64,000 nt of DNA, taken from NCBI GenBank assembly GCA_035503455.1, contig DATJTK010000174.1, forward strand, positions 992 to 64,991, given 5' to 3'. A program made the position numbers and the translations under genes. A model generated the notes under the pieces. The model did not search any database, was not told the origin of the DNA, and saw only the letters and a list, made by a program, of their open reading frames with translations. The stretch's first letter is position 1, and every line of letters starts with the position of its first letter. Source of the DNA: Candidatus Sulfotelmatobacter sp. Lineage in GTDB: Bacteria > Verrucomicrobiota > Verrucomicrobiia > Limisphaerales > UBA11358. Below, piece by piece: positions 7,354 to 43,836 of the stretch.

Positions 7354-7401
7354 TGGGCCTCAAGGCTGGTCCCTTTAAGCGGCATGAGCAAGGCCAAAGG
7401 A

Positions 7402-7471
7402 GGATTCGAACAATGATGAAAATAGGAATTCAGGAACTTAAATCTGCGTCAATCTGCGAAATCTGCGGATC
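7402..7471 (+). repeat. About 70-bp intergenic repeat, copy 2
   Basis: ggattcgaacaatgatgaaaataggaattcaggaacttaaatctgcgtcaatctgcgaaatctgcggatc. Together with copy 1 it brackets the DHFR-family gene. Confidence 0.75.
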
Positions 7472-8067
7472 CCATTCCCTGACGGTCGCGGCTCTGCTCC
7501 AATCTGTGCCGACTTTTTCCTTTTTCCTTTTTAATTTTGCCATTCGTTCACACCCCCGTGAACGAACGCAAATCAAAACGCGCCTGGCGTGAACGACAAA
7601 TCTTCGAATTTCCAAATAAAAACCCCGTTTTTTAGCCTCCAAACGTTTCGTTCACGCTTTCAACACCCTACACTTGCGTTTTCGTGAACGAAGCAGTCTG
7701 CACCGCAGAAACAGAGCCCCGGAGTGAGGTGCCGCGAACCACGAACCACTATGCCGCACGCAAAGGGCGCAAAGTCCGCAAAGAATTTTTGGCGTTTCCT
7801 ATCCTTTGCGTCCGTGGCGACCGTTGCGTGAGGCTTTGTTGTTCAAATCCGAGGACGAGGACGAACCCCTTTTACCCGGTTTCGTGTGGTTCGTGTATTT
7901 CGTTGCGCGAGATCAGACGCGCTCGCGCTTATAAATTGCGCTCGCGTTCCGCACTGCGTATTCAGGCGCTTTGAATTATGGACATCCAACCCGGGGCGGC
8001 GCTCAGTGGCAGTGCCACTTCCAAGATTCGCTTGCCCCGGGCTATTATAGTCCGCTCTTTCAGGGCT

Positions 8068-25127: not shown

Positions 25128-25245
25128 TATGTTAAAGCTCTCCCATTGTATGGACCGTCCAGAACCGAGAAGACTCTTGAGAACTGACCTGCCGTCTTGG
25201 AGTGTCTCGACGCGTCGGGATGACCCGCTTCCGAGACTCGCACCA

Positions 25246-25335
25246 CTTCGAATCGTCAATCGCCATTTGAAAGTCCAACGACGTCCGAAAGCGGTGTCGC
25301 GCAGACTTGCCACCGCACTCCAAGACGGCAAGCGC
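25246..25335 (+). repeat. About 90-bp dispersed repeat (cttcgaatcgtcaatcgccatttgaaagtccaacgacgtccgaaagcggtgtcgcgcagacttgccaccgcactccaagacggcaagcgc)
   Basis: A second copy lies inverted at 62227-62316 with only a handful of mismatches by eye. This copy sits inside the SWIM-HEAT intergenic gap. Confidence 0.75.
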
Positions 25336-25523
25336 GGAATGGACGGTTCATGGTCCCTCGCGGGTTCATTGCGCGAACGCACGATTCGCGAATTATTTAA
25401 ACTCAGTGTGAACCGTCACGCAGGACAGGCATCCTGCCTGCCGGTTCAGGGCGCATCCTGCGCCCAGTCAAACACGCGGCTGGAAGCCGCCTTAACCGGC
25501 AGGCAAGATGCCTGCCCTGCGCA

Positions 25524-27338
25524 ATGAGCATCGCCTTGATTGAAGAATCCGCGAAAGAAGTTCGCCGACTTGCCATCGCCGGCAGCCCGCTTGCTGTCGG
25601 AGATTTTCGGCTGAAAAAACTCATCCCGCCGCTGGAACAGGCCGGCGCGAAAGTTCCCGTGTTCGCGCAAGTCGCCAAAGCGATCAACGACGTCGTAAAC
25701 GCGACCGAGGCGGAGTCCGCCGCGCGCCTGCTAAACTTAAGCACGCTGCTCAATGCAATCCTCTATACTCAGGGCCAAACCAGCACGACCGGAGATTTCC
25801 AGAAACTCGAAATTTTTCCCTCCAAATGCTCCACCACACGGACCACCGCCCGCGTGCTCAAACCGTTGATCGAAGCGCTGTCATCGTCCGGCGGCGGACG
25901 ACTTGAAATCATTAAATCCGCTGTCGAACGCGGCGCGTTCAACGATCTGCGTCTCATCGATCCCGCGATCCGCGCGCTGGGTGACAATTATCCGGAAATC
26001 GCCGACCTGGTTGCGGAAAAAATTCTTCCCGCCTACGGCCCGGGAATCATTCCGCGCCTCAAGACCGGACTCGATCTCAAAGGCAAGAAACACGATGCGC
26101 GAAAACTGGAAGTGATGCACCGGCTTGATCCCGTCGGGACGCTCGATCTTTGCAAAAATGCGCTGGAGGATGGGTCACCCGAAGTCAAAATCGCCGCTAT
26201 CGCCTGCCTCGGGCAACACGAAGACTGCCTGCCGCTCGTGCTCGAACAGGCCAGCGCGAAGAACAAACAAGTCCGCGCCGCGGCGCTGGAAGCGCTCGCC
26301 GAACATGACCGTCCCGAGATTACGAAGATTTTCAGCGAACTGATCGGAGGCAAAGCGTTCGACATTCTCGTCCGCCCGTTCCGTCGGTTGCGCAACCGGC
26401 AGGTTTTGAATTCCCTATTGGATGAAGGTCGAACGAAGTTTGATCTGATTCTCAAAGGCGATTCACAGCAAATCTTACTCTTTCACGAGATTTTAAACTG
26501 TCTGGCCTCGCGGAGAGATAGCGAAGTAGAAAAATTTTTCCTGGAGATTTTCGCCAAATCAGTCGCACTAACAAAGCTAGCCTTGCACAACCTTTCCGTT
26601 AAAGTTAATGCGGTCCAAAACGCCCCGATACAAGGGGCTGATTTGATGGAGCGTCTGGTCGAGCGGGTTTACGGGATTGGTTCTCGCGCAGCACTGGAGG
26701 CCATTTTGGAAAGACGCGAGGACCTTCCAACGTCGGTATTTCCGTATGTGTTGCGGAGCGCTGTTCGGACATGGCCTCCGGACAAAGTTTATTCCGAATT
26801 TTCGCCTTTGCTCGAAGGAAAAACGGGGGCGGGAAAAGAAAAGCGCGAAATGTTGGAGGGATTTATCAACACGAGCCACGCCAGGTTGGAACAGCCACCA
26901 GACGCAGGCGAAGACGCTGATCGGCAATCGATGCCAGAGAGCCTGACATGGGACCCATGCTGGCTGGACGCTGCCATCAAGGCCGACTCGCGAGTAATAG
27001 TGTGCTGGCTGGCTCGGCCGAATCATATTGGGTCGTTAAACTATTTGTGGAAACTTGGAACGCCCAAGAGCGCCAACCACACGGCGCTGACCGTCCGGGC
27101 CCTCGCTCGATGCCAACATCCAAACGTGACAGACTTTTTCATTGGACAGGTGGCCCGAAAATCAAAAGGCGCGAACTATCTCGATTACGAATTACAAACA
27201 CTTCTCGAATCAGCGAAACACTTACCCGCATCAGATTTGCCGAAACTCGACGCGTTCGCCACGAAACTGGATGAAAAATTCGCAGACGCATACCTCGTCG
27301 CCATCGAGCCGTTACGCCGACCCAATCAACCCGACTGA
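25524..27338 (+). CDS. HEAT/ARM-like repeat protein, hypothetical
   Basis: 604 aa and all-helical in character, with HEAT-like units such as DGSPEVKIAAIACLGQHEDCLPLVLEQASAKNKQVRAAALEALAEHDRPE. It ends 11 nt before the AAA+ gene. Confidence 0.6.
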   Translation: MSIALIEESAKEVRRLAIAGSPLAVGDFRLKKLIPPLEQAGAKVPVFAQVAKAINDVVNATEAESAARLLNLSTLLNAILYTQGQTSTTGDFQKLEIFPSKCSTTRTTARVLKPLIEALSSSGGGRLEIIKSAVERGAFNDLRLIDPAIRALGDNYPEIADLVAEKILPAYGPGIIPRLKTGLDLKGKKHDARKLEVMHRLDPVGTLDLCKNALEDGSPEVKIAAIACLGQHEDCLPLVLEQASAKNKQVRAAALEALAEHDRPEITKIFSELIGGKAFDILVRPFRRLRNRQVLNSLLDEGRTKFDLILKGDSQQILLFHEILNCLASRRDSEVEKFFLEIFAKSVALTKLALHNLSVKVNAVQNAPIQGADLMERLVERVYGIGSRAALEAILERREDLPTSVFPYVLRSAVRTWPPDKVYSEFSPLLEGKTGAGKEKREMLEGFINTSHARLEQPPDAGEDADRQSMPESLTWDPCWLDAAIKADSRVIVCWLARPNHIGSLNYLWKLGTPKSANHTALTVRALARCQHPNVTDFFIGQVARKSKGANYLDYELQTLLESAKHLPASDLPKLDAFATKLDEKFADAYLVAIEPLRRPNQPD

Positions 27339-27349
27339 CCCTATTCATT

Positions 27350-28447
27350 ATGCCCAAGGAAACTCCAAACGACCTCCGCCAACCCGCCGAAACCCTCTAC
27401 GCCGAAGAACTCGACGCGTTGATTAAAGCCGAGAAGAATCCAGTGCCCGCCGGCTGGCGGATGTCGCCGCGCTCGGTGCTCACCTACATTTGCGGAGGCA
27501 AATGCGGCAAGCTCGATATCACGCCCAAATACATCGGCCATCAGCGCCTGGTGGAAATTGCGATCTCGACGCTCGTCACGGACCGCGCATTGCTGCTCAT
27601 CGGCGAACCGGGCACGGCCAAGTCGTGGCTCTCCGAACATCTCGCCGCCGCCATCAACGGCGATTCCACCAAAGTCGTGCAAGGCACGGCGGGCACGACT
27701 GAGGAACAAATTCGTTACACCTGGAATTACGCCATGCTCATCGCGCGCGGCCCGAGCAACGAGTCGCTCATCAAGAGCCCCATCTTCCGCGCCATGGAAT
27801 CGGGCAGCATCGCGCGCTTCGAGGAAGTCACCCGTTGCGCTTCGGAAGTGCAGGACGCATTGATTTCCATTCTATCCGAAAAACGGCTCTCCGTTCCCGA
27901 ACTGGCCACCGAAATCCCCGCTCAACGCGGATTCTCGGTGATCGCCACGGCCAACACGCGTGACCGCGGCGTCAACGACATGTCCGCCGCCTTGAAACGC
28001 CGCTACAATATCGTCGTGCTGCCCGCGCCGGCGGATTTGGAAACCGAAGTATCCATCGTCACCAAACGCGTGAAGGAACTCGCCGGCAATCTGCAATTGC
28101 GCGCCGAAATTCCGCATGAGGACGCCATCATCAAAATTGTGACCATCTTCCGTGAACTGCGCGCCGGCCAGACGCTCGACGGGAAGAACAAGGTCAAGAC
28201 ACCGTCGGGCGTTCTTTCAACCGCCGAAGCGATCTCATTGCTCGCCAACAGCATGGCGCTCTCCGGCAACTTCGGCGACGGCAATGTCAGCGATAACGAC
28301 CTCGCTTCCGGCCTGCAGGGCGCGGTCATCAAGGATGACGACAAGGACCTGATCGTCTGGAAAGATTATCTGGCCAACGTGATGAAGAAGCGCGGCGCAA
28401 CCTGGCGCGGGCTGTACTCGGCATGTACAGAACACGCGGGGGAATAG
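27350..28447 (+). CDS. MoxR-type AAA+ ATPase (AAA_5; YehL-like)
   Basis: Walker A LLLIGEPGTAKSWL, a Walker B-like IARFEEVTRC followed by VQDALISILSEKRLSV, and sensor ATANTRDRG. 365 aa. Confidence 0.88.
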   Translation: MPKETPNDLRQPAETLYAEELDALIKAEKNPVPAGWRMSPRSVLTYICGGKCGKLDITPKYIGHQRLVEIAISTLVTDRALLLIGEPGTAKSWLSEHLAAAINGDSTKVVQGTAGTTEEQIRYTWNYAMLIARGPSNESLIKSPIFRAMESGSIARFEEVTRCASEVQDALISILSEKRLSVPELATEIPAQRGFSVIATANTRDRGVNDMSAALKRRYNIVVLPAPADLETEVSIVTKRVKELAGNLQLRAEIPHEDAIIKIVTIFRELRAGQTLDGKNKVKTPSGVLSTAEAISLLANSMALSGNFGDGNVSDNDLASGLQGAVIKDDDKDLIVWKDYLANVMKKRGATWRGLYSACTEHAGE

Positions 28448-28459
28448 TATCCTCAATTG

Positions 28460-30829
28460 ATGAGTGCCGCGCCCCATATCTTTGGCGTCCGCCATCTTTC
28501 ACCGGCGGCAGCGTGGCATTTGCGGCAGTTGCTGGATCGCGTCCGCCCAAAGCTCGTGTTGATCGAAGGTTCGGACGACGCGGACGAATTGATTCATCAC
28601 ATCGTCAGCCCGCAATCGAAACTGCCGATTGCGATTCTTGCCTATACCGCCGACGCGCCGGTGCGGACGTTTGTTTATCCGCTGGCATCCTATAGCCCGG
28701 AATACCAGGCGCTCGTCTGGTGCCAGCAAAACAAAGCGAAGGCCCGTTTCATCGATTTGCCGTCGTCTGTTTTTCTCGGCCTGATGGACCGGGACGATGG
28801 GACGGCGCCGGTTGAAAAAGATAAACCTGAGGAAGCCGACGAAAAACAAAAAGGAAAGGATAAGCCTACGTTGGCCCAACTCGTTAAGGACGAGGACGAG
28901 GACGAGAAAGTTGTCGAACAAAAACCCAGGCGGGAATCTATTTATGACCGCCTCGCAGAACTGGCCGGCGAACCCGACTACGAAACCTATTGGGAACGTC
29001 ATTTCGAGCAGTTGCACGCCAATGACAGTTACCTGAACGCCGCGCGCAGTTACGGCGCGGAATTGCGAGAGATGGAGGATTTTTCCACGCGTCACGCTGC
29101 CGAAAACCTGGTGCGCGAGGCCTACATGCGACGGAAGATTCAACAAGCAATCGCCGAAGGCTTCAAACCGGAGCAAATCGTGGTAGTGACCGGCGCATTT
29201 CATGCCACTGCCCTTGGCGCCGATTTGCCGCCGATGACCGATGAGGAATTCGCCAAACTCCGCAAGCGCGCGTCCAAAATGACGCTGATGCCGTATTCAT
29301 TTTTCAAATTGTCGTCGCAATCCGGTTACGGCGCGGGGAACCATGCGCCCGCTTACTTCGAACTCGTATGGAATTCCTTCAACGAGAATACAGCGCCCGA
29401 GTTGCCCGAATTATTTCTCACGAGCGTCGCCCGCGAGTTGCGGTCATCCGGCACTTTTCGTTCAACTGCCGAGGTCATTGATGGCGTTCGCCTGGCCGAG
29501 ACGATGGCCGGGATGAAGAGTTCGCGTCCGACCTTGCGTGAACTCCAGGATGCCGCAGTAACGTTGCTCGGCCAGGGTGATCCGGCGGTCGTTCGCGAAT
29601 CATTGTTGCGCGTGGAAGTGGGCACTGCCATCGGCGCGCTGGCCAAGGGCGTCAGTCAAACTTCGATTCAGGACGATTTTTACCGTGAATTGAGCCGGCT
29701 GAAATTGGAGCAATTCAAGACGGGCGTGAAGCGCGATCTCGATCTCGACCTGCGGGAGAATCGCCGGGTCAAGAGCGCGGAAGCTGCGTTCCTCGATTTG
29801 CATCGCTCCAGTTTTCTGCATCGGCTTGCGGTGCTCGAAGTGCCATTCGCGCAAAAGCAGGCGGTGCGACAGGACGGAACAACCTGGGCCGAACGCTGGG
29901 CGCTGCAATGGACGCCGGAGGCCGAAATCGCGATTGTCGAAGCGGTGTTGCTGGGCGAGACGATCGAACTGGCGGTCGCCTTCAAGTTTAAGCAGCAGCT
30001 TGAGAAATGCACGGTGATTGCTGAAGCCGCCCAGGTCATTCGGCGCGCATGCGAATGCGGGATGAGCGGCTCAATTGAACTCGCGCGCCAGACCCTGCAA
30101 CGGCTCGCGAACGATTCTTCGGAATTCACAGCATTGGCCGGCGCGGCCGCTGAACTGGGTCTGGTGATTCGCTACGGCGACGTCCGCCAATTCGACGCCG
30201 AGCCGCTCAAACCGTTGCTCGAACAGTTGTTTCTCGAAGGCGCGCTCGGGCTCGTCGGCGCGTCGAACTGCGATCTTGCCGCCGCAAAGGCGATGCTCAT
30301 AGGCGTCAACGAAATGAACAAAGTCGCGCTGGATTACACGTCGTTGATTGACGAACCGCTCTGGATATCCGAACTCCAAAAGCTCGCCCAGGCCGACCAT
30401 TTGAATCCAATGCTGTCCGGTTACGCCTGCGCCCTGCTCGTCGAGCGTGGATTGATTTCGAACGAAGAACTGGCGAAGGAAGTTTCGCGCCGGCTGTCGC
30501 CGGGCATCGCCGCCGATTTGGGCGCAGGATGGTTTGAGGGCCTGGCGCAGCGAAATCGTTACGCGTTGCTGACGCGCCTCGCGCTCTGGGAACAACTCGA
30601 TAGTTACGTCGGCGCATTGACGGAGGAGGAATTCAAGCGCGCGCTCGTGTTTCTTCGCCGCGCGTTTGGCGATTTTTCGCCGCAGGAAAAACACAGCATC
30701 ACCGAAAACCTCGGCGAAATCTGGGGCGTGAACAAGGATGCGGCGAGCGAAGTGTTGAGCGCGGAACTGAACGAAGACGAAAAGAAAAAGCTCGATGAAC
30801 TGAGTGATTTCAATTTTGAGGAACTGTAA
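28460..30829 (+). CDS. DUF5682 family protein (YehM-like)
   Basis: About 789 aa. The N-terminus HIFGVRHLSPAAAWHLRQLLDRVRPKLVLIEGSDD fits the DUF5682 pattern as I remember it. There is an acidic insert (DEDEDE) and a long helical C-terminus. The track start at 28457 is TTG; ATG is at 28460. Confidence 0.72.
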   Translation: MSAAPHIFGVRHLSPAAAWHLRQLLDRVRPKLVLIEGSDDADELIHHIVSPQSKLPIAILAYTADAPVRTFVYPLASYSPEYQALVWCQQNKAKARFIDLPSSVFLGLMDRDDGTAPVEKDKPEEADEKQKGKDKPTLAQLVKDEDEDEKVVEQKPRRESIYDRLAELAGEPDYETYWERHFEQLHANDSYLNAARSYGAELREMEDFSTRHAAENLVREAYMRRKIQQAIAEGFKPEQIVVVTGAFHATALGADLPPMTDEEFAKLRKRASKMTLMPYSFFKLSSQSGYGAGNHAPAYFELVWNSFNENTAPELPELFLTSVARELRSSGTFRSTAEVIDGVRLAETMAGMKSSRPTLRELQDAAVTLLGQGDPAVVRESLLRVEVGTAIGALAKGVSQTSIQDDFYRELSRLKLEQFKTGVKRDLDLDLRENRRVKSAEAAFLDLHRSSFLHRLAVLEVPFAQKQAVRQDGTTWAERWALQWTPEAEIAIVEAVLLGETIELAVAFKFKQQLEKCTVIAEAAQVIRRACECGMSGSIELARQTLQRLANDSSEFTALAGAAAELGLVIRYGDVRQFDAEPLKPLLEQLFLEGALGLVGASNCDLAAAKAMLIGVNEMNKVALDYTSLIDEPLWISELQKLAQADHLNPMLSGYACALLVERGLISNEELAKEVSRRLSPGIAADLGAGWFEGLAQRNRYALLTRLALWEQLDSYVGALTEEEFKRALVFLRRAFGDFSPQEKHSITENLGEIWGVNKDAASEVLSAELNEDEKKKLDELSDFNFEEL

Positions 30830-32034
30830 TGCCAAACCCGGTGAACCAGGAACAATTGAAGCGCTGGCGGCTGATTCTCGGCCGGCACGCGCAGGATTCC
30901 CTTGCCCAGATGGGCGGCGGCGGACTCGAACTTTCGCCTGACCAAATTGGCATGGACGAAGCGCTCGCGGCCATTTACGACGAATCTTCCGGCGAAGCCG
31001 ACGGACAGCGTGGCCGGCAACGAAGCGCAGGCCTCGGCCCTTCCGCGCCAAATCTGGCAAAGTGGCTGGGGGACATCCGCAATTATTTCAAGGAAGACGT
31101 CGTCACCGTCATCCAAAACGACGCCATCGAGCGCAAAGGACTCACACAACTCCTATTTGAACCGGAATTGCTGAAGAATGTCGATCCGAATCCGCAACTC
31201 GTCGGCACGTTGATGTCGCTGAAAGGCCGCATCCCGGAACGGACGAAGGAAACGGCGCGCATGGTCGTGCGCGCGGTGGTCGAAAAGATCAAACGCCTGC
31301 TCGAACAACGCATCCGCCAGGCCGTGCTGGGCGCGCTCAATCGAAAAGAACATTCGCCCCTGCCCAACTCCGCGAACATCGACTGGAAATGGACCATTGG
31401 CCGCAACTTGAAAAATTACCAGCCGGCGCTTGGAACGATCGTGCCGGAGCGAGTTTACTTTTACTCGCGCGCCCAGCGCTCGAACAATTGGACCGTCATC
31501 GTCTGCATGGACCAAAGCGGTTCGATGGCCGAATCGGTCGTTTACGGCTCCGTGACCGGCTCGATTTTCGCCTCACTGCCCGCGCTCGACACTCGAGTGG
31601 TTGCGTTCGACACCAATATCGTGGACCTGACTGAACAATGCGGCAACGACCCGGTGGATATGATTTTCGGCGTCCAACTCGGCGGCGGGACGGACATCAA
31701 CAAAGCCATGGCATATTGCGAGCAATTCATCACCGACCCCGGCCAGACCATTTTTTTCCTTATCAGCGACCTTATCGAAGGCGGCAATCAGTCCCAACTC
31801 ATCCGCCGCATGCATGAAATGGCGGCCTCGGGCGTGCGTGTCATCACGCTGCTGGCTTTGTCAGACAGCGGCATCCCAATGTTTGACGAACAAGTCGCCA
31901 AAAAACTATCCGCCGGAGGAGTGCCCTGTTTCGGTTGCACTCCCAACAAACTCCCCGAACTCATTGAGGGCGTTCTCAAGAAGCATGATTTGAAAGCCCT
32001 GGCCGCGCGCCTGGCGACGAAGAAGGAGAAGTAA
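30829..32034 (+). CDS. VWA domain protein, CoxE-like (YehP-like)
   Basis: 401 aa with MIDAS VCMDQSGSM, then GGGTDINKAM and FLISDLIEGG. Its start overlaps the previous stop (TAATG). Confidence 0.85.
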   Translation: MPNPVNQEQLKRWRLILGRHAQDSLAQMGGGGLELSPDQIGMDEALAAIYDESSGEADGQRGRQRSAGLGPSAPNLAKWLGDIRNYFKEDVVTVIQNDAIERKGLTQLLFEPELLKNVDPNPQLVGTLMSLKGRIPERTKETARMVVRAVVEKIKRLLEQRIRQAVLGALNRKEHSPLPNSANIDWKWTIGRNLKNYQPALGTIVPERVYFYSRAQRSNNWTVIVCMDQSGSMAESVVYGSVTGSIFASLPALDTRVVAFDTNIVDLTEQCGNDPVDMIFGVQLGGGTDINKAMAYCEQFITDPGQTIFFLISDLIEGGNQSQLIRRMHEMAASGVRVITLLALSDSGIPMFDEQVAKKLSAGGVPCFGCTPNKLPELIEGVLKKHDLKALAARLATKKEK

Positions 32035-32433: not shown

Positions 32434-34095
32434 TTGACCGAAACAGAAAACAAGATTTTTGATATGGAAACCTCAACAAGTCCGGCGGTCAGGTCTCAAC
32501 CAGCCGCGAATCCATTTTTCGGCTGGCTCCATTCGATGTGCAAACGGATCATGGCGGGCAATCCATTCTATTTGGCGAGCGCCGGACTTCTCCTCTACGG
32601 CATCAACCAATTGACTACGGATTCCAAATTGGTTGGCGCGGAGTTTCCGATGTTGCGGTTCAATTTCTGCGCCCTGTTTCTGTACGAAATCATGCTGGTC
32701 GGCACCGCCATAATGCTGATTCGCCGCAGGATTTGGTATGACGCCCTGTTGTTATTTGGCCTGACCAATCTCTTTGTCATCGTGCCATTCAGCCTGATCA
32801 GTCGGGCAGTGTTTCTCAGTTCGCACCTCGCGCTGGCCATGAGCATTTGCGGCGCTGCGCTGGCGGTCGCCAAATTTTGGGCGTTCAAACGATATGCGCC
32901 CGAGCTTAATTTGCCACGAAGGCTTCTATTCTTCGGCGTGTTATTGCTGCTTGTGAACGCTTCGGCCCCGCTGCTTTTCAAAAGAATCGCACTGGACCTG
33001 GACCATGTTAGCAAGTGGCTTAACTTCATCTGGGAATTTCTCCTCCCGGCATTGGCTGGACTCGGAATATTCCTTCCGCGTCAGGCATGGCGGACCGGGA
33101 GGTCCGCCCTACCGTTTCGCGGTGGCACGCCGGGAGGAGAAAAATGGCTGCCCACTGCGATTTTCTCCGGCTGGACGATCGTTACCGCTTTTCACTTCGG
33201 CGGCATCGGATACTCGAACAGTTACGTTTGGAATTGGCCGCTGCTGGTGCCAATAGCTTGGGTGGTAACATGGACAGCCTATGTTCGAATCACGGATTTC
33301 ATCACCAGGCCAAACCGGCTCATTGAACAAATCGTGTTGTCCGTGCCTCTGTTGCCGCCTTTACTGGCCGTCCAATCGGAAGGGATATTAACGGTATTTG
33401 CGGGGTTAAATCTCGTTATTTACGGGTCACTGTTTATTCGCAAGGATCGAAATTTCCTGGCCCTGACCCGATTGCTTGGCGCCATTGCGATTCTTGCCGG
33501 CACTTTGCCAATGTCCTGGATTAGTCACATCGTGCCGAGCGTTGAGCGCCCGGAATGGGCCATGCTTTCGGTATTTGCGTGTTTCTTCTGGCTCATATTC
33601 TGGTCTCGCGATCCTCGCATAGCGTTGTTCGGCGCGTTGAGTCTAATCGGCCTCTGTTTTTGGTATGCCCCGGAATTCGGGCAGTACGCCTTCCAGGTGG
33701 CGCTGGTGTCATTGCTGGCCCACAGCCTGCGCTGGGAAGAGCAAGTACACAAGGGCGCGACGATACTTTGTTTTGTCGCGAGCATGCTATGGTCGTTGGT
33801 GTCGTGTTCGTGGTTATTTGACTCGGTCCACCCGGAGCGGCTTCTCGTTGACTCGGCTGCAGGGGTACTTCTAGCGGTCTATTTGCTGCACGCGACCATA
33901 TTTCGACGCTGGAAACGCTTGATCGTTCCGATTAGCGCAGCGTCTGTCCTGGCCTCGGAGCCAGCCATGATTGTGGGAAAGTGGCTTAACGGTGATACGC
34001 CTGGAATGCTCGCCGTCATCGGCAGTTTTATATTATTCGCGCTGGGCAGCATCGCTGCGTTCTCCAAACCAAAATGGTGGCCTCCCGGCCCGTAG
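32434..34095 (+). CDS. Polytopic integral membrane protein, hypothetical
   Basis: 553 aa with at least 12 hydrophobic helices and no motif I recognise. The start codon is non-ATG in the track. The stop codon lies inside the terminal repeat of the element at 34092. Confidence 0.6.
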   Translation: MTETENKIFDMETSTSPAVRSQPAANPFFGWLHSMCKRIMAGNPFYLASAGLLLYGINQLTTDSKLVGAEFPMLRFNFCALFLYEIMLVGTAIMLIRRRIWYDALLLFGLTNLFVIVPFSLISRAVFLSSHLALAMSICGAALAVAKFWAFKRYAPELNLPRRLLFFGVLLLLVNASAPLLFKRIALDLDHVSKWLNFIWEFLLPALAGLGIFLPRQAWRTGRSALPFRGGTPGGEKWLPTAIFSGWTIVTAFHFGGIGYSNSYVWNWPLLVPIAWVVTWTAYVRITDFITRPNRLIEQIVLSVPLLPPLLAVQSEGILTVFAGLNLVIYGSLFIRKDRNFLALTRLLGAIAILAGTLPMSWISHIVPSVERPEWAMLSVFACFFWLIFWSRDPRIALFGALSLIGLCFWYAPEFGQYAFQVALVSLLAHSLRWEEQVHKGATILCFVASMLWSLVSCSWLFDSVHPERLLVDSAAGVLLAVYLLHATIFRRWKRLIVPISAASVLASEPAMIVGKWLNGDTPGMLAVIGSFILFALGSIAAFSKPKWWPPGP

Positions 34096-34272
34096 CGCAG
34101 GTTTCCAAACCTGCCGTATCGCCGATTTCTAAATCGGCTAGCCGTCCGAACGCGGACCACCGCAAGCTCCCGGAACACCGTGGCGTGGGTTTCCAAATCG
34201 GCAGTCGAGCGACCACGAACGATCAGCAGGTTTGGAAACCTGCGATACAGCAGACTTGGAAGTCTGCGCTAC
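34092..34272. repeat. MITE/REP-like element with terminal inverted repeats GTAGCGCAG...CTGCGCTAC and internal GCAGGTTTCCAAACCTGC-type hairpins
   Basis: The ends read gtagcgcaggtttccaaacctgccgtatcgccgatttctaaatcggc... and ...cagcaggtttggaaacctgcgatacagcagacttggaagtctgcgctac. Related full copy at 40985-41147, half copy at 55995-56061. Confidence 0.65.
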
Positions 34273-34691
34273 GGTTCATGGCCCAGCTCTGCTTCAAGTT
34301 CGCTTACTCGATACTGTACGTTGTCACCGTAGCCCCACCCGATTCTTTGGGCACTAGAGCCCAATTTTTGAATGCGCTCCCGAAAGCGAGGATATGATTC
34401 GGGACATTCGCGCCAAAGGTGCTGAGCCATTTCGTTCAGCACGGACTCCAGACTGGTATAAAACGGCGCCTCTATATCGCCAAATTGTTTTGTAAACTCG
34501 GTGCCATTTTCCACATAGGTCAGCATTAAATCGATCGTGCCTTCCAAATTGCCAGTAGCTTTGCGGTAATCGCGAATGGCCTTGCGCGCTTCAGCGAGTT
34601 TGAGTTTTCCAAAGCCACGTGACGGGAAGAATTGCTCCACAATCTTGCGACGATATTTTTCCAGACCCGGTCCGGCCTTTTCATCGGCCAT
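34269..34691 (-). CDS. Hypothetical helical protein
   Basis: 140 aa. KLKLAEARKAIRDYRKATGNLEGTIDLMLTYVENGTEFTKQFGDIEAPFYTSLESVLNEM looks like a conserved helical family (possibly DUF6155-like, from memory, unverified). Confidence 0.5.
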   Translation of the reverse strand: MADEKAGPGLEKYRRKIVEQFFPSRGFGKLKLAEARKAIRDYRKATGNLEGTIDLMLTYVENGTEFTKQFGDIEAPFYTSLESVLNEMAQHLWRECPESYPRFRERIQKLGSSAQRIGWGYGDNVQYRVSELEAELGHEP

Positions 34692-34855
34692 GAAACGAGC
34701 TTGTAGAAAATCGCGATTCCCCGCCGAAAGTTCATAGAGGCTTCACCAGCGCAATCAACGCCGGCTTCGACCAACCATTCAGCTGTCGGCGCACACTTTG
34801 CCAGCCTGTAAATTTATTCTCTGCCATGTGAAATTTCAATAATCGTTGGCACGTC

Positions 34856-35311
34856 TCATTTTAGAAAATCCGTCAGCGCCCGCCAGTGGCTTCCCGCGTC
34901 GAATGCTTCTCTATCGATCAACCGAAGCCGTCTGGTTAAATCTTCAAGGTCTTGTTTGGCGGAAGAAAAATATTCGTTCAACAGTCTAAAGCTTGTCGCA
35001 AACCGATCAACACTCGTGTTTAGAACGCTCAGCGGCTGTTCCAATTCCACGTCAATCCGTACAACGGAACCGCCTATCTCGTCGGCGCAAACGAACGCGC
35101 TGCCAGCATTCGGGAATTTCTCCTCACCAAATACTCGGTATCGGAGCCAGTCCGGTGGTAAAGGGGGCCCGCCGACAACAGGTTCTGTGGTCACTGGCCG
35201 CAAATGCCACATGAGTCTTGAGAAATTAAATGAAACCCATGTTTCCCGAAACTGCCACCTTGCCCGATTCGGCAGCGAATCGACCAATTGCTTTTGAAAT
35301 TCGGGATTCAC
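34856..35311 (-). CDS. Hypothetical protein, possibly SUKH/SMI1-KNR4-like immunity-type fold
   Basis: 151 aa. LPPDWLRYRVFGEEKFPNAGSAFVCADEIGGSVVRIDVE...LNEYF vaguely resembles SUKH family patterns. This is a weak call. Confidence 0.4.
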   Translation of the reverse strand: MNPEFQKQLVDSLPNRARWQFRETWVSFNFSRLMWHLRPVTTEPVVGGPPLPPDWLRYRVFGEEKFPNAGSAFVCADEIGGSVVRIDVELEQPLSVLNTSVDRFATSFRLLNEYFSSAKQDLEDLTRRLRLIDREAFDAGSHWRALTDFLK

Positions 35312-35395: not shown

Positions 35396-36724
35396 TCAAA
35401 CCTGGCCCGGCGTTTTCTCCTCGTAACCTTCATCCGTCTTTTGTTCGATGAGAAGCGCCATCGCATCGGCTGCGGCTTGCTCGTCTGCAAATGTTTTCGT
35501 CTTGGATTGGCCGGCTGAACCAATGCGTCCCCATCGCGTAGTCATGTTGTTGCCCGATTGTGAAACTTCCCAGAATTTGCTGGAGCTGCCTTCGACAAAC
35601 TCGAAGTAGCGGGGTTTGGAATCGCTGCCACCCGAAATCGAAACCGCCGGTGGCGCTTCGGGTTTCGTGGACACCGGCGATTGCACACTTTTAAGGGCGA
35701 CATCATGCCGCACGCCGACCCAACTTGGAAAACGCGGCACGCCCGCGTCAGAAAGCTCCTGGTAGCGAAAGGTCACGGTGGCGCCGATGCCCGGCGGATT
35801 CTCGCGTTCGCCGTCGCTGAAACCCGTGCCAATGGCGAAATCGGCGCCATCCGGCAGGCGCACCAACAACGCGCCCATTCGTCCCTTATGGCGTCCCGCG
35901 CCGGCCTGATGCCCAATGACAATGGCTTCCGCATCATGAAACGTTTTGACCTTCAGCAGCGTGGTTGAGCGGCCGGCAACATACTTCGATCCCGGTTGCC
36001 GGAGCATTAGCCCCTCGCCTCCGAGTGCCTCGACGCGCTTCAGTTCCGCGCGCAGGGCATCCAGGTTTTTGCATCGTTCGTGGACATGCTCCCGGGCGAA
36101 TTTTGCCACGGCCCTTGCAAGCGCATCCTTCAGAAAGGCAAGACGCTCCTCGAAACCGCCATTCGCCGCGGGCGCATCGAAGATGAGAAAGCGCACTTCC
36201 TTCCAAAGCTCGTTCTTGTCCTGGCGCCGGACGATGCTGACGGTGCGTTGAAACTTCTTGCGGTCAATCCAAAGTTCCCCATCAAGCGGCACCGCGGGCA
36301 GACCCTCAATGAACCAATCCGGCGCGTAATAGATGTGGCCCTGGCGCGAAAGAAATTGTTTGCCGTCCCAATAGGCGCGCACACCGTCGAGTTTTTCGCT
36401 CATCCACCAGCCGGACAAATCGGCGGCGTTGTCCCAACTCTCAGCCAGCAACAGCGGCGGGCCGGAATCAGCGTCCGCTTCACCGTCCGCAGTCTGCGCT
36501 GCGCGAACAGGACGTTGCGGCAATGCGCCACCGATGCGCGCTTCCTCCGCCGCATCTCCGCGCAGTTTGCGCAGGTGCTTGCAGGTCCTTTTCTCGATTC
36601 CGATGGATTGGTTGCGCCAGGCCGGGCAAGTGCATGAATAAACGCCACCGGTATTTTTTAAAACGTAAGGCTTCGCTCCCGAGCCCTGCATTTCCGTTGA
36701 TTCTCCGTCTTGTAGGTCGGGCAT
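35396..36724 (-). CDS. ATP-dependent DNA ligase (LigE/minimal type) with N-terminal SWIM zinc finger and C-terminal WGR domain
   Basis: 442 aa. SWIM motif YSCTCPAWRNQSIGIEKRTCKH (C31-x-C33-x14-C48-x-H50, nt about 36575-36634). Adenylation motif MSEKLDGVRAYW (K111, nt 36392-36394), then EGLMLRQ, LLKVKT and an OB region. The C-terminal WGR is YFEFVEGSSSKFWEVSQSGNNMTTRWGRIGSAGQSKTKTFADEQAAADAMALLIEQKTDEGYEE (nt about 35420-35632). Confidence 0.85.
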   Translation of the reverse strand: MPDLQDGESTEMQGSGAKPYVLKNTGGVYSCTCPAWRNQSIGIEKRTCKHLRKLRGDAAEEARIGGALPQRPVRAAQTADGEADADSGPPLLLAESWDNAADLSGWWMSEKLDGVRAYWDGKQFLSRQGHIYYAPDWFIEGLPAVPLDGELWIDRKKFQRTVSIVRRQDKNELWKEVRFLIFDAPAANGGFEERLAFLKDALARAVAKFAREHVHERCKNLDALRAELKRVEALGGEGLMLRQPGSKYVAGRSTTLLKVKTFHDAEAIVIGHQAGAGRHKGRMGALLVRLPDGADFAIGTGFSDGERENPPGIGATVTFRYQELSDAGVPRFPSWVGVRHDVALKSVQSPVSTKPEAPPAVSISGGSDSKPRYFEFVEGSSSKFWEVSQSGNNMTTRWGRIGSAGQSKTKTFADEQAAADAMALLIEQKTDEGYEEKTPGQV

Positions 36725-37098
36725 GGGTGATGGATATTTGAGGGTTGGCGGTTATCTGTGTTGCGTTGTCTTCCAAAAGTATTTGGACGATTTAACTTCT
36801 GTCAATGCCATCGTCCAAATTCATACCTTGAACTCTCCGGCACCGCCAAAGGCGCGCGCCACCATACCAGCCTGGGGCCTCGCCCCAGGATATCGAGCAT
36901 AGAGCACCCCAAGGGCTGAAGGCCCGTCTTATCAATTCGCACCCGGCGAACCAACGTTTGATTCCACGCGTCAAAATCCACAGGTTGATCCATGCTATAA
37001 ATCGCGCCGTTGGCGCTTATCCCATTTCGCCAGGAACATGGGGCGTTGCCCCATGCTGGTATAAAGTGGGCCTTTGGCCCATCATCCCGCCGCTCTAG

Positions 37099-38670
37099 CT
37101 ATTGCTCCGACTCCCTCTTCTTCACCGCTTTCTTCTTCGGTTTGGCCTCCGCACTTTCGGCTTCCGCTGGAACTGGAGCCGCAACCGCAACCGCCTTCGG
37201 TCCGCCGTACAGGTCGAAACCTTTGGTGATATTTTCTTCGATCAACTTTTTCGTCAGCGCCTCGGCCCGAGTCTCAGTGTGGGCGAACAGAGTTGTGACT
37301 TCGAGCGGCGTCTTGCGACCGGCGGAAAAATCCGTCCAAAAGATGACGTAGGGAAATGCCCCAGCCGTCGCGGGCCGCCGTCCGACCACCAGTTTGCGCA
37401 CGGCCAAAGCGCCTTTGACTTCCTTGCTATAAACCTCGCGGCGCACGACTTCGAGGACCGGCAGATTCCGATTGATCAATTCAGGCGCCGCAATCTCGCG
37501 GCCGGAAAGCTGGGCGATCCGCACGGCCTGCGGAGTGAAATCCTTGTCCGCGCGCAGGCGATGAAACGTCGGCAGCAACAACCTCGGACTCGCGGCGAGC
37601 CCGTCAAAACTCCAGCGCTGGTTATTCCAGCCAAAGACCTGCTGTCCGCTGGCTTCCTCGTCGGGCGGCAGAATGTCTTCCGCCTCCACTTCCACGACGA
37701 AACCGGGCTTCACGAAGCGCACGGGACGGCCATCGCTGTCGCTCATCGCCAGCGGCGCATCCACTCGCAGCGTGGACAACCGCCCCAGCCAGTCTACGCG
37801 GTCCTGGTCATTGAAACCCGAGCCGACGCGCGCGATCGATTGCAATTGCAGCCCGCGTTCGCTCGCCGGATAAGCCAAGGCCGTCAGAAGCGACATCATG
37901 CCGTAATTGCCTTCAAACTCGCCTTCCACAAAACCAACTACCGCCGCGTCCACGGTCCGGCGCGGTTTAAGTTTGCAGACTTCAGGCCGATCCAACCGGC
38001 GGATGACGAGACCTTCCAGCCCGCCGGAAGTCTTCTGATCAAACAGTTTCGGCAGGTCCGCGCCGCTCACCTCGCCACCTTCGGCGCGATGTACCAGCTT
38101 GTCCATATTGGTGCCGGCCAATTCGCCGATTAATTTCCAAATCGTGAGAAAATCAGATTGATGCACGCGCAGGTCGCGTCCGTCGTGCATAATTACATCG
38201 AGCACGGCCAGGCGGAAGCGGCCCGCATCGGCCGGGTCATTGGAATAACTGGCGCGCGTGACGTCAGCGCTCGCGCAACGGCGGCCATCCACAGTCTCGC
38301 GAAGATAAAGTTCGGCGCGCAATAGCGCTTTCTTCGTACCGTGCGCCTTGAGATTCGCCGCCAACTCCTTCAAACACGGCAGTCCGACACGAGCCCGACC
38401 CGATGGCGCATTGAATGTGAAGATGTCCGGACTGCGTCCCGCTTCAAAATATACGAACACACCTTCCCCATCGTATTTGGTGGTTTCGAGCACGCGACTG
38501 TCCGGGCCGTAACGCGCGGGCAGGTCCGCGGGTTTGATGGCAATGAAACGATTCGAGACTTCGACGTCGTATTGCTCGGCCACTTCCATGAGCACGCGGT
38601 CGGTCACGGCGGCGCGCGGCCCGAAGGCGTAGTCGCCGCTCTTTTTGGTCAATCTGGCCAGGTCAATCAT
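37099..38670 (-). CDS. ATP-dependent DNA ligase (nucleotidyltransferase + OB) with about 130-aa C-terminal extension and Lys-rich tail
   Basis: 523 aa with motif I ETTKYDGEG (K65, nt 38476-38478), LRAELY, EGLVIRR, CKLKPRR and motif VI-like PTFHRLRADKD. The tail is AEAKPKKKAVKKRESEQ. Its start overlaps the upstream stop (ATGA at 38667-38670). Confidence 0.8.
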   Translation of the reverse strand: MIDLARLTKKSGDYAFGPRAAVTDRVLMEVAEQYDVEVSNRFIAIKPADLPARYGPDSRVLETTKYDGEGVFVYFEAGRSPDIFTFNAPSGRARVGLPCLKELAANLKAHGTKKALLRAELYLRETVDGRRCASADVTRASYSNDPADAGRFRLAVLDVIMHDGRDLRVHQSDFLTIWKLIGELAGTNMDKLVHRAEGGEVSGADLPKLFDQKTSGGLEGLVIRRLDRPEVCKLKPRRTVDAAVVGFVEGEFEGNYGMMSLLTALAYPASERGLQLQSIARVGSGFNDQDRVDWLGRLSTLRVDAPLAMSDSDGRPVRFVKPGFVVEVEAEDILPPDEEASGQQVFGWNNQRWSFDGLAASPRLLLPTFHRLRADKDFTPQAVRIAQLSGREIAAPELINRNLPVLEVVRREVYSKEVKGALAVRKLVVGRRPATAGAFPYVIFWTDFSAGRKTPLEVTTLFAHTETRAEALTKKLIEENITKGFDLYGGPKAVAVAAPVPAEAESAEAKPKKKAVKKRESEQ

Positions 38671-39371
38671 GTTGCGGACGCCGGCGCTGCCGGCCGTTTG
38701 AGTTCCTGATCCGACAACAACAACAGCAGACGATAACGCGCATCGTCGCCCTTACCCTCCACTTCACCATAAAGAAATCCGCGAAACGGCGTGCCTCCGT
38801 CACGCAGCACCAGCGGCCCCGCGCCTTTCGGGCCGGCGCCCACGAGCGCCATGCTTTGGCTTTCCTGCAGCGACTTCGCCAGGCCATGAAGAAAATCAAA
38901 CGTCAAGCCGTCGGTATGGACAAGCTGTTGCATCCCGCGAAAGACAAATTTCGTCAGGCATTCCTTCACCGGCATGCGGCGAACGATTTTCAGCGGCTGC
39001 GTCGTGTCCACGTTCGCCGTGCGGAATACGCGGCTGCGCCGCTCCTTCTCCTGTCCGTCCGGCGCGTAAACCACCTCGACCTCCTTGAATTCAGTCGCGA
39101 TCGCCGGCTGCGCGCTGCGGGTATCGAGGTAAACCGCTGTTGCGTCGCGCATCAATCGACCCGCAAGCTGGAAATCCAACTCCGGATCGCCCTCAATCAA
39201 TTGCGCGGAATTCGCGGACGCCATGAAGTTTTGCCCATTCAACGCCTGCACGCGTTTGACTTTGCCTGCGCTGGTCACCTGCTCCAGCGGCGCGGCGTTC
39301 TTCTCAGCCATGGGCGAACTTAGGCCCACGCGCGCGCTACGGCCTTCGTTTTCGAGATGAAGCGTGAACAT
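38667..39371 (-). CDS. Hypothetical protein (orphan), second gene of the ligase operon
   Basis: 234-aa ORF, translationally coupled to the ligase gene, with no recognisable motif. Its composition looks like a real protein rather than an antisense artefact. Confidence 0.6.
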   Translation of the reverse strand: MFTLHLENEGRSARVGLSSPMAEKNAAPLEQVTSAGKVKRVQALNGQNFMASANSAQLIEGDPELDFQLAGRLMRDATAVYLDTRSAQPAIATEFKEVEVVYAPDGQEKERRSRVFRTANVDTTQPLKIVRRMPVKECLTKFVFRGMQQLVHTDGLTFDFLHGLAKSLQESQSMALVGAGPKGAGPLVLRDGGTPFRGFLYGEVEGKGDDARYRLLLLLSDQELKRPAAPASAT

Positions 39372-39386
39372 GTTTCCTCCGTTACG

Positions 39387-39962
39387 TTACATCATGCTGA
39401 AATCCAGCGGATCAGCCGCTTCCTCGGCGCCGCCCGCCGGGGCATCAAAAAATTGATACGCCACAGTGCGCCCGGCCATCGGGCAGGCTTTGAGCTGGCC
39501 CACGAGAAGAAACGCGCCATCATCGCGCACGAGCAGCAGGACATCGCGCGGGCGCGCCGACTTGCGATAATTGAAAGTTCCTCGATAGAGGCCAGGAGCA
39601 AGCCCGCCCGCGTCAACGGGATAAACATCCGTCGTCAGGAAACGCGCGAGCGTCTCCAGCGGCACGGCTTCGAGCGGTTCGCCGCCATCGAACGAACTTG
39701 GACGCAACTCAAGTTTCTGTCCGGCGCAATGAATCTCCGGCGTTTCCGCGGGCGAACCGTCATTGTCCACCGAAGTCATCGCCACCTGGCTTTTGCGAAG
39801 AGTCGCGCCATCGGGCAACAGCCAGCCGCGCTCAAGCCGCTGTCCGTTTTGCTCGACGACATGGTCCACGCGCCCGTAAAGGTCGTCCTTGCCAATTTTG
39901 GATTCGAGAGTGGCGGCGATTTCCTTGCCACCGACAGAAAGCTTTAATGATTTAGCAGCCAT
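39387..39962 (-). CDS. Hypothetical protein (orphan), first gene of the ligase operon
   Basis: 191-aa ORF lying 15 nt upstream of the next gene, with no recognisable motif and an acidic C-terminus (GGAEEAADPLDFSMM). Confidence 0.6.
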   Translation of the reverse strand: MAAKSLKLSVGGKEIAATLESKIGKDDLYGRVDHVVEQNGQRLERGWLLPDGATLRKSQVAMTSVDNDGSPAETPEIHCAGQKLELRPSSFDGGEPLEAVPLETLARFLTTDVYPVDAGGLAPGLYRGTFNYRKSARPRDVLLLVRDDGAFLLVGQLKACPMAGRTVAYQFFDAPAGGAEEAADPLDFSMM

Positions 39963-42873: not shown

Positions 42874-43836
42874 GTGAATGCTGAATCATCCCCTGCTGCC
42901 GCCAGCCCCTGGATCAAAAAATTCCTGGCGCACCTGGCCACAGACCGGGGCGCGTCGCTTTATACGCAAAAAAATTATCGGCAGGCGCTTGAGGAATTTT
43001 CACGGTGGCATGCCCAGGAACGCCAATCGGCGCCGGCCTGGGACAAGCTCCAGCGCGACGACTTTCGCGGTTATTTGCGGTACCTGGGACGGAACAATTT
43101 GAGCCGCGCGGCGACGTCTCTGCGCTTTTCCGCGCTGCGCACATTCTACAAATTCCTCATCCGGCACGGCATGCTGGCCAGTTCGCCTATAAAAAATTTA
43201 TCGCTGCCCAAACCCGAAAAGCGGCTGCCTAAATTTTTAACCATTCAGCAGATGGAAGCTTTGCTGACTGCGCCATTGCAACTGGCACAGTCGCGCCAGG
43301 GCAAAAAAGGAGCGGGACGCCCCGTGTCCATGGCCGTGGGGTTGCGGGACGTAGCGGTCCTGGAAACGATTTATTCCTGCGGCCTGCGCATCAGCGAATT
43401 GTGCGGCCTGCGCGCCGATGACATGGATTGGGCGCAACAAATCGTCCGGGTCCGCGGCAAAGGCAAAAAGGAGCGGCTCGTGCCCATCGGCAAACCGGCG
43501 TTGGATGCCATCGAGCACTATTGGAAAACATTGAAAATGCCGCCCGCGGGAGCATCGCCGGTTTTCTTCAGCGAAACGAGAAGCCACGCGCCGTTGCATC
43601 CGGTCCAATTATCGCGACGGTTAAAGCAATATCTCGCTTTCGCGGGCCTGGACCCAAATTTGACGCCCCACAAGCTGCGTCACAGCTATGCCACGCACAT
43701 GCTCGATGCCGGGGCGGATTTGCGCAGCGTCCAGGAATTGCTCGGCCATGCGCATTTGACGACGACTCAGATTTACACGCACGTCACCACCGAACGGCTT
43801 AAGAAAGCCTATGATGCGGCCCATCCGAGGGCGTGA
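42874..43836 (+). CDS. Tyrosine recombinase, XerC/XerD family
   Basis: 320 aa with the catalytic pattern ...GLRISEL...HKLRHSYATHMLDAGADLRSVQELLGHAHLTTTQIYTHV. GTG start. Confidence 0.88.
   Translation: MNAESSPAAASPWIKKFLAHLATDRGASLYTQKNYRQALEEFSRWHAQERQSAPAWDKLQRDDFRGYLRYLGRNNLSRAATSLRFSALRTFYKFLIRHGMLASSPIKNLSLPKPEKRLPKFLTIQQMEALLTAPLQLAQSRQGKKGAGRPVSMAVGLRDVAVLETIYSCGLRISELCGLRADDMDWAQQIVRVRGKGKKERLVPIGKPALDAIEHYWKTLKMPPAGASPVFFSETRSHAPLHPVQLSRRLKQYLAFAGLDPNLTPHKLRHSYATHMLDAGADLRSVQELLGHAHLTTTQIYTHVTTERLKKAYDAAHPRA

Follow-up and report, generated by a model that had tools for sequence, protein, structure and literature searches.

The gene described here probably encodes a cytoplasmic, ATP-dependent nick-sealing repair ligase that carries two tethered nucleic-acid-binding modules. 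It lies in a 64,000-nucleotide stretch of DNA from Candidatus Sulfotelmatobacter sp. (Verrucomicrobiota; contig DATJTK010000174.1) that is referred to below as the window. A complete open reading frame (ORF) at 35396..36724 on the minus strand runs from ATG to stop and specifies 442 amino acids plus the stop codon, with an N-terminal SWIM-type zinc module, an ATP-dependent core of the LigE type and a C-terminal WGR domain. An earlier note had proposed such a fusion from the letters of the DNA. The reading frame and the motif C31-x-C33-x14-C48-x-H50 are present as it quoted them, and its LigE-like core and WGR domain were both borne out by the profile searches given below, while its SWIM assignment, discussed further on, held in part.

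Assignment of the catalytic core to the LigE type is firmly supported by profile and structure comparisons. The NCBIfam model PRK09125 (a Lig E-type equivalog) matches residues 80-341 with 337.8 bits against a cut-off of 200 (E=3.8e-101), and Pfam recognises DNA_ligase_A_M (PF01068) at residues 106-260 (E=3.8e-9) and DNA_ligase_OB_2 (PF14743) at residues 275-339 (E=3.2e-26, 91.6 bits against a cut-off of 28). According to the Pfam, PRK09125 and Lig E alignments, the nucleotidyltransferase (adenylation) domain spans residues ~91-262 (35939..36454, minus strand). The catalytic lysine K111 lies in motif I (KxDG), SEK111LDGVR, with its codon at 36392-36394 on the minus strand, and the other motifs of the domain (III, IIIa, IV and V) are represented by DGE148-150, FD182-183, EG237-238 and K258/K260. 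In an alignment of 108 divergent homologs, SEK111LDGVR, LDGE150, FD183, EG238 and K258xK260 were invariant, and all of them could be aligned to the Psychromonas enzyme Psy-Lig. The OB_2-type OB-fold domain follows at residues ~263-341 (35702..35938, minus strand) and includes the motif VI-like PRFPSWVGVR, in which P330, R331, F332 and R339 are conserved in the homolog alignment. Of the proteins with solved structures, the Lig E enzymes 4d05 (Psychromonas Psy-Lig), 8u6x (N. gonorrhoeae) and 6gdr (Alteromonas Ame-Lig) come closest (E=5e-63 to 2e-54), with Psy-Lig matching at E=5.4e-63 and an identity to the Lig E structures of ~40%. The best Foldseek superposition of the core predicted by AlphaFold2 (AF2) was on DNA-bound Ame-Lig 6gdr, with a root-mean-square deviation of 2.7 A and a template modelling score of 0.86. 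Judging from these matches, the protein is an ATP-dependent DNA ligase of the covalent nucleotidyltransferase superfamily with intact catalytic motifs, and nick-sealing activity is predicted for it.

The assignment of the WGR domain by sequence comparison is likewise secure. The domain occupies residues ~370-439 (KFWEV...TRWGRIGSAGQ...EQKTDEGY; 35408..35617, minus strand), and the Pfam model (PF05406) matches residues 372-439 with E=9.6e-19 and 67.7-71.7 bits against a cut-off of 22. Its identity to the WGR domain of E. coli YehF amounts to 42%. A profile built from the WGR domains of the ligase family matches the bacterial WGR protein 2ra8 (E=1.8e-23) and the PARP3 WGR 2eoc (E=5.7e-7), and more weakly those of PARP1 (E=0.024) and PARP2 (E=0.15). 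The core (W/Y/F)GR(I/V)G is in register with the PARPs, so that RWGRIG aligns with RWGRVG. The WGR domain of PARPs binds DNA close to the 5' terminus, and 5'-phosphorylated, ligation-competent breaks activate PARP2 and PARP3 (PMC4081085); the bacterial WGR is also treated as a DNA-binding domain (PMC7824862). By analogy, targeting of breaks or nicks by the WGR domain of the ligase is plausible.

The N-terminal module (residues ~5-66; 36527..36712, minus strand) was delimited from the AF2 model, in which the local confidence score (pLDDT) is 90-96, from the Pfam SWIM family as the top match in homologous modules and from the hhalign register. Its predicted zinc ligands C31, C33, C48 and H50 (CTCPAWRNQSIGIEKRTCKH; 36575..36634, minus strand) form the pattern C31-x-C33-x14-C48-x-H50 and are accompanied by conserved W36, Q39, R46 and K49. 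The four ligands are invariant, albeit in alignments that were selected for the motif. In an unbiased count, made on 128 divergent representatives (clustered at 50% identity) whose catalytic lysine is preceded by 95 residues or more, the CxCxnCxH pattern was present in 111 (87%), the loop was exactly 14 residues long in 93 of those 111, and the motif histidine typically stood 50-90 residues ahead of the catalytic lysine. The family consensus reads C-x-C-P-A-W-R-x-Q-x(7-9)-R-T-C-K-H. Among the 46,188 residues of all six-frame ORFs in the window, there are just two instances of the pattern, one in the ligase and one in the Pfam-validated SWIM protein encoded at 23658-25127. The Cys/His pattern is therefore conserved far beyond chance. 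In the AF2 model, strands are found at residues 9-12, 20-25 and 28-31 and helices at 34-37, 49-55 and 57-64; strands 20-25 and 28-31 end at C31/C33, and helix 49-55 starts at C48-K-H50 (pLDDT above 90), which corresponds to the predicted SWIM topology. Makarova and colleagues are said to have described this topology in 2002 as beta-strands followed by a helix carrying the CxH. W36, R46 and K49, which are conserved and either aromatic or basic, would suit nucleic-acid binding by the module. That the N-terminus forms a real, conserved zinc module is well supported, and its classification as a divergent, long-loop SWIM-type finger, which would bind zinc, is moderately supported. A PDB sequence-profile match of the module to the C2H2 linkers of ZNF568 was discarded as spurious noise.

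The AF2 model of the whole protein (mean pLDDT 90.7; predicted template modelling score 0.72) contains three folded units parted by two low-confidence linkers (~67-90 and 345-365). The first linker, at residues ~67-90 (36455..36526, minus strand), is rich in Ala, Pro, Gly and Asp, has a pLDDT of 60-69 and is poorly conserved in homolog alignments; the second, at residues ~342-369 (35618..35701, minus strand), is predicted to be disordered, with the pLDDT falling below 50 at 345-365. The N-terminus of the protein, MPDLQDGESTEMQGSGAKPY, is acidic, has no hydrophobic core and belongs to a confidently folded AF2 domain. The stretch MPDLQDGESTEMQGSG... is kept down to distant homologs, with G7 and Y20 invariant, and because of this conservation we regard the start codon as right. 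Inspection of residue composition and of AF2 folding gave no evident signal peptide in the N-terminus, and the ligase thus appears, from sequence and model, to be a leaderless and probably cytoplasmic form. A sigma-70-like promoter match (TTGACA-16-AATACT, 10/12; 36778..36805, minus strand) lies ~55 nucleotides upstream of the ATG. Three promoter-like sites were counted in the region against 1.9 expected, which is not significant on its own, so that the match is at most weakly consistent with an independent ligase transcript.

The family to which the ligase belongs is very large: thousands of sequences from Verrucomicrobiota, Planctomycetota, Myxococcota and Obscuribacterales share its architecture, and its nearest relatives belong to Verrucomicrobiae. 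A word-indexed protein search gave more than 7,700 matches, the best 120 of which were all at least 78% identical and had the same Pfam combination, some being named 'DNA ligase [Verrucomicrobiae]'; an exhaustive search of 50% representatives returned 1,422 clusters at E<=1e-30. In GTDB species genomes, at least 80 ligase loci were present in Verrucomicrobiota, Planctomycetota, Myxococcota and Obscuribacterales, and the cultured strains among the listed loci include Labilithrix luteola, Archangium minus, Myxococcus eversor and Chondromyces apiculatus. Both fusions for which the earlier note had suggested a domain-architecture search, ligase with WGR and SWIM with ligase, were found: among the 150 best representatives, 86 had the zinc module and ligase alone, 19 the ligase only (many of them fragments) and 11 the zinc module, ligase and WGR, with rarer arrangements of zinc module (Z), ligase (L) and WGR (W) such as WZL, ZLWW, WWWZL and up to ZLWWWWW. 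The number of WGR copies varies from 0 to 5, and they may stand at either end of the protein. Metagenomic examples of WGR arrays on the zinc-ligase core are P0121 (1055 amino acids), with five C-terminal copies, P0146, with three N-terminal copies, and P0129, in which a WGR domain is combined with LRR.

These architecture counts identify the zinc module as the constant partner of the ligase and the WGR domain as a variable, mobile accessory. The earlier note had laid the emphasis on WGR; the domain is real, but its copy number varies, whereas the zinc module is a near-constant partner (111/128). What marks out the leaderless LigE-like clade is the zinc module and not WGR, and this result is new from our analysis. 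The ligase-WGR fusion as such and the non-secreted status are not new. A bacterial cluster of nucleotidyltransferase (NT)-OB_2-WGR ligases was noted by Williamson and Leiros in 2020 (PMC7470946), and a leaderless Myxococcales/fungal 'cluster c', apart from canonical Lig E, was delimited in a Lig E network in 2021 (PMC8455567), and the family is already catalogued. Calling the cytoplasmic, domain-decorated form atypical, as had been done, overstates the case: the word is apt only in relation to canonical proteobacterial Lig E, and the form is the usual one of a very large leaderless clade. In the literature searched, no paper joining a SWIM zinc domain and a WGR domain was found, results for 'SWIM' being swamped by papers on swimming.

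Further indications of function come from the domains that replace WGR in eukaryotic members of the family, namely BRCT, PBZ or WWE in the alga Cymbomonas, the choanoflagellate Salpingoeca, the fungus Collybiopsis and the oomycete Pythium. The zinc-ligase core is fused to WWE and BRCT in P0159 (Cymbomonas), to PBZ and BRCT in P0166 (Salpingoeca), to BRCT in P0225 (Pythium) and to PBZ in P0223, and in the metagenomic representative P0201 it is fused to a complete PolX (Pol beta/lambda) polymerase. Such fusions look like single-polypeptide gap-fill-and-seal ligases or ligases recruited by poly(ADP-ribose) (PAR). Since the accessory partners are all DNA-break or damage-signalling modules, they support a role in repair. 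In addition, the 'Ligase E' of the bdelloid rotifer Adineta vaga (AvLigE) and of Mortierella (MvLigE) is damage-induced and improves radiotolerance (PMC10665377). On IMG/VR viral contigs of 100-527 kb (L164-L168 and L172-L185), which are of giant-virus or jumbo-phage size, the zinc module and ligase (query residues 1-340) occur together at 42-55% identity; on dozens of short phage contigs, the core stands by itself.

Taken together, these features suggest how the enzyme could work. A minimal core of adenylation and OB_2 domains has no dedicated DNA-binding domain, and the two tethered modules would replace it. On their flexible linkers, the zinc module and the WGR domain would let the enzyme bind 5'-phosphorylated nicks or ends more strongly and stay on them for longer, and would bring the core to the break; the core would then adenylate K111, pass the AMP to the 5'-phosphate and seal the nick. 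Zinc binding, DNA binding by either module, the preference for breaks with a 5'-phosphate and the repair role are the elements of this scheme that we infer.

Several observations tell against this proposal. Pfam gave no match at E<=10, SWIM included, for the isolated ligase residues 1-98, and its SWIM model (PF04434) scored 11 bits (E=0.33) on a 58-residue segment from the window, below the cut-off of 19.6. A Foldseek search of the PDB with the isolated model of the zinc module found nothing better than E=3.6. SWIM domains can also mediate protein-protein contacts, DNA binding by the zinc module and by WGR is deduced from homology, and no biochemically characterised bacterial member of the clade was found in the literature searched. 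These data raise a question that concerns classification only: is the module a SWIM finger, or a family-specific CCCH zinc knuckle of structural role that merely fits the loose CxCxnCxH pattern? The sub-threshold score of the window copy and the absence of SWIM-containing structures from the Foldseek results would suit a knuckle, and so would the 14-residue loop with its conserved W-R-x-Q, which contrasts with loops of 6-7 residues in the accepted SWIM proteins nearby. An hhalign comparison with six accepted Yeh-type SWIM domains placed CxC and CxH in register (P=7.6e-4) with a probability of just 25%; this test is low-powered because the comparison profile consists of six sequences, the homolog search having given close relatives only. 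Nevertheless, SWIM is by far the commonest Pfam match, being the top family in 45 of 73 divergent copies of the module (best E=1.1e-4) against 9 for the runner-up, and in UniProt, two homologs from eukaryotes bear the name 'SWIM-type domain-containing protein'. A precomputed PF04434 match is present in only ~40% of the source-annotated Yeh-type 'SWIM zinc finger family' proteins, so that this model is borderline even for accepted members. The local sequence VYSCTCPAW...CKH of the ligase closely resembles VYRCTCPSH..CKH of the validated SWIM protein in the window, and the predicted order of strands and then a helix also speaks against a knuckle, which we consider unlikely. The earlier note had made its two domain assignments depend on profile searches: these uphold WGR, while for SWIM the copy in the window stays below the threshold, the hhalign support is weak and the fold search is uninformative, leaving SWIM as the best available class by the count of copies and by topology.

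The location and the substrate of the enzyme have to be weighed as well. Cysteine-based zinc sites and WGR domains are typical of intracellular proteins, no leader peptide is seen, and the acidic N-terminus folds into the zinc module. All this speaks against a periplasmic or extracellular Lig E that acts on environmental DNA, as in Neisseria, a reading that draws on the homology of the core to Lig E and on the description of Lig E as periplasm-targeted and tied to biofilm and competence. As the leaderless Myxococcales/fungal cluster is moreover distinct from canonical Lig E (PMC8455567), we give this reading hardly any credence. Action on RNA or RNA-DNA hybrids instead of DNA nicks is very unlikely too: WGR has been described as RNA-binding in other proteins (PMC7470946), and a weak Pfam RNA_ligase match covers the adenylation domain of one eukaryotic homolog, but the core is closest to Lig E enzymes, for which DNA ligase activity is established biochemically and crystals with nicked DNA have been obtained, and the fusion partners of the relatives are DNA-damage modules.

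Another important question is whether the ligase acts on its own or belongs to the gene cluster that it faces. A Yeh-type cluster (23658-32034) is convergent with the ligase gene in the window. On the plus strand, it comprises genes for the SWIM protein (23658-25127; PF04434 E=2.9e-5), a HEAT protein (DUF4132-like; 25524-27338), a MoxR AAA+ protein homologous to YehL (27350-28447; 40% identity, E=5e-82), a DUF5682 protein homologous to YehM (28457-30829; E=3e-31) and a VWA_CoxE protein homologous to YehP (30829-32034; E=1.5e-70). A 132-amino-acid ORF on the same strand lies between the SWIM and HEAT protein genes, and a 553-amino-acid predicted membrane protein, hydrophobic in sequence and with no Pfam match, is encoded at 32434-34095 (plus strand). 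The five-gene Yeh core is conserved, at identities as low as 42%, in 80 metagenomic loci, human-gut contigs included. The E. coli yeh cluster (yehF/yehH(molR)-yehI-yehLMPQ) shares the YehL, YehM and YehP homologs and a SWIM protein with that of the window; there, WGR (YehF, MolR/YehH) and SWIM (YehQ) are on separate proteins, and the ~25 kb that were examined of the yeh region in E. coli K-12 contain no ligase. The literature searched yielded no functional paper on yehLMPQ. In the window and in loci L004, L006 and L034, the only ORF that bears WGR is the ligase. Because of this, and because E. coli has separate WGR and SWIM proteins in the cluster, the ligase was examined as a Yeh component. 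It would then be an accessory or effector of a YehLMPQ-type system, with SWIM and WGR serving as adaptor domains and not as autonomous break sensors.

The full cluster opposite the ligase and the 42% identity between its WGR domain and that of YehF agree with such a partnership, and adjacency recurs in differing arrangements, which adds to the points against a self-contained enzyme: the two are convergent in the window and in L004, L006, L087, L089 and L091, the ligase follows VWA directly and in the same direction in L088 and L054, and it follows a YehQ-like protein, again co-directionally, in L034 (Obscuribacterales). This minority adjacency could indicate a partner system. However, among the matches listed, a Yeh cluster was within 10 kb in only 4 of the 80 ligase-centred genome loci. 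In a Yeh-centred sample of 25 metagenomic loci flanked by 5 kb or more of sequence, only three had the ligase near the cluster, all of them close relatives (DUF5682 identity of at least 83%), and Yeh clusters at 42-63% identity had neither the ligase nor a WGR protein nearby. As a general rule, membership of the ligase in the Yeh core is thus rejected, given the rarity of the linkage and its conservation in close relatives only. Neither the ligases nor the Yeh-type proteins tested (SWIM, HEAT, MoxR, DUF5682, VWA and the membrane protein) matched a defence system in PADLOC. Clustering of the neighbours in the 80 genome loci listed revealed no partner conserved across phyla, only generic families that each occur in at most 10 loci (sigma-54 activators, kinases, sulfatases, DUF1501/DUF1559). 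We therefore consider an accessory role in a Yeh-type system improbable. The absence of a conserved neighbour and the rare Yeh linkage show that the ligase is normally a stand-alone gene, as expected for a self-contained enzyme. A reverse-transcriptase family (4 loci; L005 5552-7213) and a PD-(D/E)XK nuclease family (5 loci; L076 15376-16461) were also seen near the ligase, too few times to interpret.

Upstream of the ligase and on the same (minus) strand lies a three-gene operon (37099-39962) that encodes proteins of 191 and 234 amino acids and a second, divergent ATP-dependent ligase of 523 amino acids. The two smaller products had no family matches. The 523-amino-acid ligase has a KYDG motif, matches only DNA_ligase_A_C in Pfam and no sequence in the PDB, and ends in a C-terminal tail rich in Lys, Ala and Glu; its family is narrow (283 matches) and mostly annotated as 'hypothetical protein', and the operon may be more novel than the SWIM-LigE-WGR gene. 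It is kept at ~50% identity beside Yeh-type clusters in L114 and L244/L245, and not in L246/L247, and its presence there gives the Yeh partnership some further support. It is conceivable, if doubtful, that both ATP-dependent ligases, the second with its two operon partners, are recurrent optional partners of YehLMPQ-type systems. Were this true, the Yeh-type machinery would act on DNA, in break processing, repair or a conflict system, and the SWIM and WGR domains common to the ligase and the Yeh proteins would be joint modules for recognition of DNA or of partners.

Other genes near the locus can be mentioned briefly. The cargo around the ligase is variable. Downstream of it (34269-35311, minus strand) are a SUKH-4 immunity-family protein (34856-35311, minus strand; E=1.2e-6) and a 140-amino-acid protein of unknown family; both are absent from the 87%-identical relative L001, in which a DUF433/PIN toxin-antitoxin pair (7265-7856) lies between the two ligases. 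A XerC/D-like tyrosine recombinase (Phage_integrase and SAM_1; 42874-43836, plus strand) is encoded a few kb from the locus; it adjoins GH57 branching-enzyme and GT2 genes and is probably a housekeeping enzyme.

For the most part, the result is a sound annotation of a family that is widespread and recognised in databases, to which the SWIM-type hallmark and the Yeh lead are added. It supplies well-defined domain limits, and residues that can be tested, for a self-contained enzyme with built-in modules that presumably bind DNA. This could interest ligase enzymologists and tool developers, as minimal ligases with added DNA-binding domains are in demand. The leaderless clade reaches fungi, protists, algae and viral contigs of giant-virus size. 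That two different ligases are linked to Yeh-type MoxR/VWA clusters in a minority of loci may be the first hint of what a conserved gene cluster of E. coli does.

Among the known systems, Lig E (Psy-Lig 4d05, Ame-Lig 6gdr and the N. gonorrhoeae enzyme 8u6x) shares with the ligase of the window the two-domain NT and OB_2 core with all catalytic motifs, and in both, the large alpha-helical DNA-binding domain and the latch are absent. Canonical Lig E comes from Proteobacteria, is mostly equipped with a signal peptide and carries no appended domains, whereas the ligase of the window is leaderless, comes from Verrucomicrobiota and bears a zinc module (residues 5-66) and a WGR domain (370-439) on flexible linkers; of the features of Lig E in the strict sense (Williamson et al. 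2016), it therefore has the minimal core and departs in the signal peptide, the bare core and the proteobacterial range. DNA ligase III and the NAD+-dependent ligases also have a small zinc module on a ligase core, which in them aids the engagement of DNA, but their fingers are an analogy only and have unrelated folds, that of ligase III being PARP-like and that of the window ligase SWIM-like. The WGR domains of PARP1, PARP2 and PARP3 are homologous to that of the ligase, which is nearer to the bacterial YehF/2ra8 type; as the ligase has no PARP catalytic or helical subdomain, it has no partner for allosteric signalling. The NT-OB_2-WGR cluster (PMC7470946) and cluster c (PMC8455567) have the same Pfam architecture, occur in the same phyla (delta-proteobacteria/Myxococcota and Planctomycetes) and are linked to fungal sequences; neither paper mentions the zinc/SWIM module, its near-constant coupling to the ligase or the variation in the number and position of WGR domains. 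Eukaryotic Ligase E (PMC10665377), which we liken to the window ligase by core family alone, has the same NT and OB_2 core, is intracellular and carries break-signalling modules (PBZ). The accessory modules of the eukaryotic enzymes read PAR or phospho-signals, whereas bacterial members use WGR.

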